Positions 1 through 694 are shown, counted from the stretch's first letter. The stretch is DNA of 694 nt from a phage (AF056247.1); one strand, 5' to 3'. Program-made: numbers and translations. Notes: generated by a model not told the origin, from the sequence alone.

Positions 1-2
1 CG

Positions 3-50
3 AAAGGGCTTGAGACTCTCNTTGAACTATTAAAAGAGGAAGAAANCTAA
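3..50 (+). CDS. Possible 3' end of an upstream gene (frame 3) reading KGLETLXELLKEEEX then TAA at 48..50; product unknown
   Basis: Open frame runs from the window edge to TAA at 48..50 with charged, helix-like residues (LKEEE). Only 16 codons, two of them ambiguous, so this could be chance. Confidence 0.2.
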   Translation, partial: KGLETLXELLKEEEX

Positions 51-134
51 ATTCTATCATTGTTTCTCATGGGCATACGCATCCATTAGCTCATAAGATT
101 ACTGTCCAAAAAGATGCAGAAGGATTTTCCTACT

Positions 135-140
135 TAGAAT
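135..140 (+). promoter_or_regulatory. -10-like hexamer TAGAAT (5 of 6 match to TATAAT) 5 nt upstream of the ATG at 146
   Basis: Read directly from the sequence. No good -35 (TTGACA-like) at 16-18 bp spacing and no TG extension. Such hexamers are frequent in AT-rich DNA. Confidence 0.12.
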
Positions 141-145
141 AAAAC

Positions 146-511
146 ATGGCTGTAGATAGTAGAAATAAAGGTAAACGTGGTGAATATCAGGTAAGGAGAT
201 ATTCTACGTGAGCGTACAGGTCTTGAATGGGAACATGTTCCTNGCTCTGGTGCTTTTGGCCAGACCACGGACTGAAAAGTGACATCTACCTTCCACCACA
301 AAGTGGACACATTAGTAAATACTGCTTCGAANTTAAGTGGTATAAAGATNATAATATATCAAGTAATTTATTTAATGTTGGTGAATCCACTCTNGANAAG
401 TGGTGGCAGCAGTGCTCACCTGAAAGTGAACANANGAACTCCNGACCCGCATTAATATTCAAAAAGACAAAGACAGTGGTNAATAGCTTGGATACTCCCA
501 CCCATGGTTGA
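146..511 (+). CDS. Small PD-(D/E)XK nuclease, Hjc-like Holliday junction resolvase / YraN-like family (about 121 aa); frame interrupted by two apparent single-base sequencing errors
   Basis: ATG at 146 opens frame 2: MAVDSRNKGKRGEYQV. Frame 2 then hits TGA at 209..211, but frame 3 continues a protein-like sequence over ~195..272 (DILRERTGLEWEHVPxSGAFGQTT). Frame 2 resumes in the supplied 227..511 ORF with KSDIYLPPQSGHISKYCFExKWYKD... to TGA at 509..511. The joined protein has KG-x2-GE near the N-terminus, an acidic D in a hydrophobic stretch (DIYL, codon 281..283), and E-x-K (E 329..331, K 335..337). That order and spacing fit the catalytic Glu, Asp, Glu-x-Lys of Hjc-type resolvases. Family assignment is from motif recall, not a search. 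Confidence 0.5.
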
Positions 512-610
512 CACTTAGTGAATCTACCCCATGGTGTTAATAAAAAAGCAGGAAACNTATCGGTNATTGACCGNGCCCTANGCNCNGTGAGACNATNAAT
601 ATGATTATCC

Positions 611-616
611 NGGGGA
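611..616 (+). promoter_or_regulatory. Possible ribosome-binding site (nGGGGA) 5 nt upstream of the ATG at 621
   Basis: G-rich purine stretch at suitable spacing from an ATG; it lies in the low-quality tail and includes an N. Confidence 0.18.
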
Positions 617-620
617 AATT

Positions 621-694
621 ATGAAGAAAAGAAANGAATNGCTCCCNCTNCCCAGANTGCAAGACNNCTNNGCTCNCCCACNAAACNCAAAAAC
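621..694 (+). CDS. Possible 5' end of a downstream gene (MKKR...), product unknown; runs off the window end
   Basis: ATG at 621..623 preceded by a G-rich RBS-like element; the N-terminus MKKR is lysine/arginine-rich. About one third of codons contain N, and two (tng at 639..641, tnn at 669..671) could be stops, so the frame cannot be verified. Confidence 0.15.
   Translation, partial: MKKRXEXLXXPRXQDXXAXPXNXK

Follow-up and report, generated by a model that had tools for sequence, protein, structure and literature searches.

How is gene D14 of phages T5 and BF23 translated, when no Shine-Dalgarno (SD) sequence stands ahead of its start codon? The question was raised by a phage DNA of 694 nucleotides (AF056247.1; the window, meaning here the whole stretch analysed), which has 32 Ns and a G+C content of 40%. 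In a blastn search against phage genomes, 527 records matched the window. The best matches were Escherichia phage BF23 (92.5% identity over window positions 1-548) and T5 (92.0%), and the annotation under the match reads "D13 exonuclease subunit 2" and "protein D14". The window is, by this comparison, an error-prone, low-quality read of a Tequintavirus (T5-like coliphage) locus. In both T5 and BF23, the local gene order on a single strand is D11 (SSB), D12 (SbcD-like), D13 (SbcC-like), D14, D15 (flap endonuclease), dut, and a small ORF. The features listed in Table 1 were placed with a three-way alignment of the window with the finished sequences of T5 (NC_005859) and BF23 (OR083247). In this alignment, the D14 ORF of the window is frameshifted by an extra G near position 195 and a missing G near position 264, the second of which restores the frame. 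Beyond position ~480, the window decays heavily into Ns and indels, with a gap of ~19 nt relative to T5 near position 590. The D13-D14 junction of T5 and BF23 (T5.129, YP_006957; BF23_00146) has the same gene order, start codon, and 3-nt spacer as the window. The differences between the window and these phages are mostly read errors, while substitutions such as C107 and A164 may be real or errors. In the annotated T5 coordinates, D13 ends at 79607 and D14, which is 160 amino acids long in T5, begins at 79611. The D14 end and the D15 start share one base in the T5 and BF23 annotation, seen in T5 as a 1-nt overlap (TAATG). The T5 D13 protein matches the Pfam families AAA_23, SMC_N, and SbcC_Walker_B, and the 3′ end of D13 in frame 2 of the window reads ...IIVSHGHTHPLAHKITVQKDAEGFSYLE up to its stop codon.

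Table 1. Features of the D13-D14-D15 locus, in window coordinates unless T5 is named
Feature	Position	Strand	Basis or remark
D13 3′ end (SbcC/Rad50-like ATPase subunit, phage SbcCD-type nuclease)	1..142	+	blastn, T5/BF23 annotation; stop codon TAA 140-142
AAGGA, SD-like pentamer within the D13 coding sequence	120..124	+	seen in the sequence; 21 nt before the D14 ATG
ACTTAGAATAAAA, copy at the D14 start	132-144		
TAGAAT, -10-like hexamer	135..140	+	reaches from the final sense codons of D13 into its stop codon (first base)
AAC, 3-nt spacer between D13 stop and D14 start	143..145	+	alignment with T5 and BF23
D14 start codon ATG	146..148	+	T5/BF23 annotation, conserved N-terminus, reach of HMM and tblastn matches
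D14 coding sequence (PD-(D/E)XK-type phage nuclease), broken by read errors	146..600, end approximate	+	alignment
D15 start (flap endonuclease), badly degraded in this read	601..694, approximate	+	alignment
ACTTAGAATAAAA, copy at the D14 start of T5 (NC_005859)	79597-79609		
ACTTAGAATAAAA, copy at the D10 start of T5 (NC_005859)	74136-74148		

What kind of protein is D14? The window ORF is frameshifted, yet it aligns base for base with T5 D14. The T5 protein matches PF24608 (PDDEXK_15, "Phage putative PDDEXK endonuclease") with 161.7 bits (cut-off 27; E 1.8e-47). Its residues 4-160 correspond to model positions 1-164, a full-length family match, and phrog_244 (PHROG 244) is matched from residue 1 with an E of 1.9e-37. 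A putative PD-(D/E)XK signature (D ... E-x-K) is readable in frame 2 of the window as ...LKSDIYLPP...YCFExKWYKD, where the x of ExK stands for an N in the read and corresponds to V in T5. In its synteny, D14 is flanked by the SbcC-like D13 and by the flap endonuclease D15. RefSeq and PHROG 244 name D14 a "RusA-like Holliday junction resolvase". However, no Pfam RusA match was found for D14, the scan at E <= 0.01 giving PDDEXK_15 alone, and a search of the PDB gave no sequence relatives at E <= 1. The common RusA-like name probably misstates the D14 fold.

Is ATG 146 the real start codon? The initial annotation reported an ATG at 146, an in-frame TAA at 140..142, an AAGGA at 120..124, and a TAGAAT hexamer just upstream, and all of these are correctly placed on the sequence. 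The upstream string that it quoted, cctacttagaataaaac, is 17 nt long (129-145) rather than 15 nt, while the statement that this string lacks an SD was borne out. It also held, rightly, that the TAA prevents an upstream extension of the ORF, since this codon is in frame and 6 nt upstream of the ATG; what was not recognised is that it is the stop codon of D13. In contrast, its suggestion that the true start is hidden by a sequence error did not hold, as positions 100-148 match the finished T5 and BF23 sequences with a single mismatch at position 107 (C in the window, A in both T5 and BF23). Nor did the homologues reveal the conserved upstream extension or earlier start that had been considered; they begin at the same Met. 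T5 and BF23 annotate the same D14 ATG as window 146, the N-terminus MA(V)DSRxKGKR(G/A)EY is common to nine Demerecviridae, and distant tblastn matches in phages of Vibrio, Bacillus, and Staphylococcus begin at D14 residues 3-5. As judged from these homologues, ATG 146 is the real D14 start. Since positions 100-148 equal T5 and BF23 except for C107, it is the phage, not the read, that accounts for the absent SD.

Other start positions were considered and rejected. An upstream start is ruled out by the D13 stop codon ahead of the ATG, and a downstream start by the conserved residues 1-20 and the HMM coverage from residues 1-4. It was noticed that the extra G changes GGTAAGAGAT to GGTAAGGAGAT and thereby creates a spurious TAAGGAG 'SD' (191-197) ahead of an out-of-frame GTG at 208. 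This GTG was discarded as a start, because its SD stems from the extra G and the codon is out of the D14 frame in T5. An artefact, in which an SD was lost or an apparent start was created by read errors, or in which the real start lies elsewhere, would draw on the poor quality of the read, with its Ns, the two frameshifting indels within D14, and the degradation after ~480. However, the near identity to the finished genomes over 100-148, the start shared family-wide, and the HMM coverage of the N-terminus leave this explanation a practically negligible chance. For annotation use, ATG 146 is the right start, and the frameshifts of the window are read errors, not biology.

How weak is the SD of D14? 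It was scored as the best duplex of the 16S anti-SD ACCUCCUUA with positions -20..-1, a region outside of which the AAGGA at 120-124 lies. The anti-SD pairing of D14 is +0.2 kcal/mol, which means no pairing and agrees with the earlier claim that ATG 146 is not preceded by an SD. A canonical SD, with at least 4 nt of complementarity at a spacing of ~4-13 nt, is absent at D14, and the only exact 3-mer of the SD-region scoring string TAAGGAGGTGATC ahead of D14 is TAA. The starts of 138 annotated CDS of T5 (T5.018-T5.156) were scored identically. Their median is -6.05 kcal/mol (n=138), and 16/138 (11.6%) are weaker than -3.45 kcal/mol. Only three of the 138 genes reach +0.2 kcal/mol or more: D14 and D10 tie as the second weakest, and T5.059 alone is weaker. 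In 20-mers taken at random from T5, the median is -2.1 and a score of +0.2 or higher is reached by 28%; thus, the D14 start region resembles non-start sequence in its anti-SD pairing. These results show that D14 is a real outlier among T5 starts, though it does not stand alone.

Five of the seven weakest T5 starts are contiguous, namely T5.124 (D10), T5.125, D12, D13, and D14 of the replication/recombination block. The anti-SD pairing of D10, T5.125, D12, and D13 is +0.2, -0.9, -1.5, and -2.1 kcal/mol, respectively. D10, D12, and D13 are mostly SD-poor also in KKP_3711 (Enterobacter phage), SEL21 (Klebsiella phage), and Chester (Vibrio phage), which represent three further genera of the Demerecviridae, and D15 keeps a moderate SD throughout (T5, KKP_3711, SEL21, and Chester). 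These results suggest that the recombination module is systematically weakly translated. The SD-poor starts of D10, D12, D13, and D14 would fit a low, stoichiometrically linked output of potentially toxic nucleases.

What, then, precedes the D14 start codon? The D13-D14 junction reads UAA-AAC-AUG, a gap of +3 nt, and D14 is the third gene in a co-directional, gap-free block of early genes, D12-D13-D14-D15-dut-T5.132, whose successive gaps are -20, +3, -1, -4, and -38. From the terminator that follows D11 to the bidirectional terminator that follows T5.132, the T5 record annotates neither a promoter nor a terminator. A literature search found no published T5 transcription-start or transcriptome map covering D14. 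With regard to the head of the block, it was noticed that the D12 ATG lies ~5-13 nt past a G+C-rich terminator-like hairpin (AGGGGCTTCGGCCCCT and a T-run) and lacks an SD (T5 76782-76813), and that this arrangement is conserved in KKP_3711 and SEL21. With a putative terminator 5 nt before D12, D12-D15 may be transcribed by terminator read-through or from an unannotated promoter.

Is the tight junction common to the relatives of T5? In 9/9 Demerecviridae, nine relatives that are not independent samples, the D14 start codon either adjoins or overlaps the stop codon of the upstream gene. With D13 as the upstream gene, T5 and BF23 share with the window a stop-start gap of +3 nt, while the gap is -1 in SEL21 and -8 in KKP_3711, Chester, and JSF12. 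The gap is also -1 in Shivani and HildyBeyeler, where the upstream gene is an inserted homing endonuclease, and -8 in Vibrio phage D321, where it is an inserted hypothetical gene. The anti-SD pairing at these junctions is +0.2 kcal/mol in T5 and BF23, -0.9 kcal/mol in JSF12 and KKP_3711, -7.2 kcal/mol in D321 (GAGGT), and -9.3 kcal/mol in SEL21 (GGAGG). Across the genomes compared, the tight junction is invariant at the D14 start and the SD is optional. On the other hand, tight packing is common in T5, where 62/138 genes (45%) have a gap of -25 to +5 nt, so that the conserved tight junction is weaker evidence than it appears.

Two further observations concern this junction. Homing endonuclease genes sit exactly between D13 and D14 in several Tequintaviruses (Shivani, at 844-1340 of the segment compared; HildyBeyeler, at 841-1350 of its segment; SUT_E420; and SUT_E520). 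In Shivani, the D13 stop codon is directly followed by a remnant that resembles the D14 start (taacATGgtagat). The junction newly formed by the endonuclease gene and D14 is likewise tight (TAATG). In addition, D13 and D14 share a reading frame in T5, in BF23, and in the window, and as they are parted only by UAA-AAC, readthrough would fuse the two proteins. A D13-D14 readthrough fusion was considered and set aside: the -1 and -8 overlaps of the relatives put the genes in different frames, the in-frame fusion is not conserved, and the arrangement looks incidental.

With the tight UAA-AAC-AUG arrangement, translational coupling to D13 is the obvious candidate mechanism, which was missed in the initial annotation. 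Like a coupled pair, D13 and D14 are co-directional, with the stop and start codons only a few nt apart. The reading that I prefer, with a probability of about 0.6, is that D14 is translated by termination-reinitiation coupling to D13 at an SD-less start, probably with low output. A ribosome that ends D13 would be released on the D14 AUG, 3 nt past the stop codon, and would restart there, helped by the AU-rich and poorly structured local sequence. Restarts are probably infrequent where an SD is missing, and less of D14, a structure-specific nuclease, would be made than of D13. I infer that the translation of D14 depends on that of D13 and that D14 output is low. Such inefficient coupling would suit a structure-specific nuclease needed in small amounts.

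Experiments in E. coli bear on how well such coupling might work. At a gap of +2 nt, reinitiation losses were 5, 20, and 70% in three gene pairs, while a gap of 38 nt cut reinitiation by 80-90% in two pairs and abolished it in a third (Huber et al. 2023, PMC10666635). Removal of the SD in five pairs caused a 60-90% loss in three and a complete loss in one; the fifth pair, bioBF, has a very weak SD, showed no effect of SD removal, and started translation de novo, uncoupled (Huber et al. 2019, PMC6728339). These losses make SD-less coupling plausible yet probably inefficient, and maybe insufficient. Tight coupling in T5 is not accompanied by a significant excess of SD-less genes (9/62 vs 7/76; Fisher p = 0.43), while coupled genes have slightly weaker SDs overall (Mann-Whitney p = 0.012). 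Two genes of the replication/recombination block that are SD-poor like D14, D12 and T5.125, have gaps of 36 and 220 nt and are not tightly coupled. Thus, coupling is not the general explanation for the whole block, nor is it the only way in which T5 manages without an SD.

How else could the D14 start be used? The initial annotation had proposed SD-independent initiation, which stands in the sense that there is no properly spaced SD. In one form of this idea, free 30S subunits and ribosomal protein S1 bind the AU-rich, weakly structured AUG region of the polycistronic mRNA independently of D13 translation. The RNA around the start is compatible with this. The AU content of positions -20..-1 is 75% (rank 18/138), and the mean unpaired probability from -15 to +6 is 0.67 against a T5 median of 0.53 (rank 15/138), so that the D14 start is more unpaired than most T5 starts. 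The 100-nt RNA centred on the start folds at -10.0 kcal/mol, no more stable than its shuffles (-13.0 ± 2.6 kcal/mol, z = +1.14), and no base is paired in its centroid structure. The fold energy of the -30..+30 region is average (rank 79/138), no Rfam match was found in the window at E <= 1, and SD-less and SD-bearing T5 genes do not differ significantly in accessibility or AU content (p = 0.3-0.7). De novo initiation is further favoured by the E. coli bioBF case (PMC6728339) and by the existence of uncoupled SD-less genes in T5 itself, T5.142 with a gap of 61 nt and T5.125. However, the D14 AUG lies 3 nt from a translated stop codon and terminating ribosomes occupy the site anyway, and the tight junction is conserved even after gene insertions, which fits coupling. 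I consider initiation independent of D13, the chief competitor of the coupling model, unlikely, though worth keeping in mind; coupling and de novo initiation are not exclusive, and both routes may coexist.

The AAGGA within the D13 coding sequence was described as ~21 nt upstream and too far for a standard ribosome-binding site, and the distance to the ATG indeed measures 21 nt. The spacing at which an SD functions in E. coli is roughly 4-13 nt, and 21 nt is far outside this range. Could AAGGA nevertheless act, as a standby site or through a structure that shortens the distance? RNA structure reportedly shortens the SD-start distance in genes 38 and 25 of phage T4. AAGGA is a conserved feature of T5, BF23, Shivani, and HildyBeyeler, and D10, which is likewise SD-less, has a GAGGAG ~29 nt upstream. 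However, no hairpin between AAGGA and AUG was predicted in the 100-nt fold, and a hairpin of the T4 gene 38 type that would bring AAGGA near the AUG was discarded. The sole local pairing found by inspection, AGGA (121-124) with UCCU (128-131), would sequester the motif rather than bridge the distance, and JSF12, KKP_3711, and SEL21 have no such motif at that distance. A role of the distal AAGGA as the SD is hardly to be expected. The other proposal, a leaderless or near-leaderless D14 mRNA from an internal promoter with TAGAAT as the -10 element, fared worse. TAGAAT matches TATAAT at 5/6 positions and ends 5 nt before A146, and the promoter that supplies D12-D15 is without definition in the T5 annotation. 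Host sigma-70 RNA polymerase transcribes all classes of T5 genes (PMC7472727), so that sigma-70 criteria are appropriate for a promoter test; only the early and late classes of sigma-70 promoters are discussed in that paper. By these criteria, TTGACA is matched at no more than 2 of 6 positions (2, 0, 2, and 0 for the -35 candidates with spacers of 16-19 nt), and a TG extension is lacking. From the -10 element to +1, a distance of 6-8 nt is usual, and the 5 nt seen here fall short of it. Hexamers of the quality of TAGAAT occur once per 136 nt of T5 strand, a consensus promoter scan was silent near the D14 start, and the 6.5-kb locus holds 16 promoter-like sites against 18.7 ± 4.6 in shuffles, no excess. 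Nor is a promoter annotated at the D13/D14 junction in the T5 record, and TAGAAT is not conserved in JSF12 and KKP_3711, relatives with the same SD-less start. TAGAAT is judged to be a chance match and not a promoter; the leaderless idea, highly improbable on these counts, is unsupported by the promoter comparisons.

A motif common to the D10 and D14 starts deserves mention. The 13-mer ACTTAGAATAAAA, with TTCCTA just upstream, lies directly before the ATG of both genes. CTTAGAATAAAA has only two copies in the 100 kb of T5 examined, and the upstream genes of D10 and D14 read the motif in different frames. D10 has the domains ResIII, DEAD, and Helicase_C, and is reported to be a branch-migration helicase. 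Among T5 upstream regions, 16 pairs share a run of at least 12 nt, against 0.2 in composition-preserving shuffles, and most of these 16 come from T5 promoter-leader families. The motif was not found ahead of D14 in SEL21, KKP_3711, or Chester. It may be a chance match in AU-rich sequence or a Tequintavirus-specific element. That it serves as a Tequintavirus-specific element for SD-independent initiation or as an operator, co-regulating the helicase D10 and the junction-cutting nuclease D14 at the level of translation, is a long shot; the RegA operators of T4 follow an analogous logic. This motif is the sole route by which the D14 start could gain greater interest. Otherwise, the D13-D14 junction is an ordinary tightly packed phage gene junction, known and annotated in T5 and BF23. 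The significance is small, as the locus was sequenced long ago and an SD-less internal cistron after an upstream stop codon is familiar in compact phage operons.

How does the proposed coupling of D14 to D13 compare with known systems? Leaderless mRNAs begin at the AUG and are promoter-proximal, as exemplified by lambda cI transcribed from PRM. D14 resembles this type of mRNA in having no SD before the start; in contrast, it is an internal cistron without a credible promoter. The coupled pairs of E. coli (Huber et al.) are closer: they are co-directional like D13-D14, their downstream start lies beside the end of the upstream coding sequence as at D13-D14, and a gap of +2 nt was tested there, while the gap is +3 nt here, a distance at which reinitiation can still be expected. 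On the other hand, in most of the E. coli coupled pairs the genes overlap, by 4 or 1 nt, and the upstream gene contains an SD, while D13 and D14 are joined by a +3 gap without an SD.
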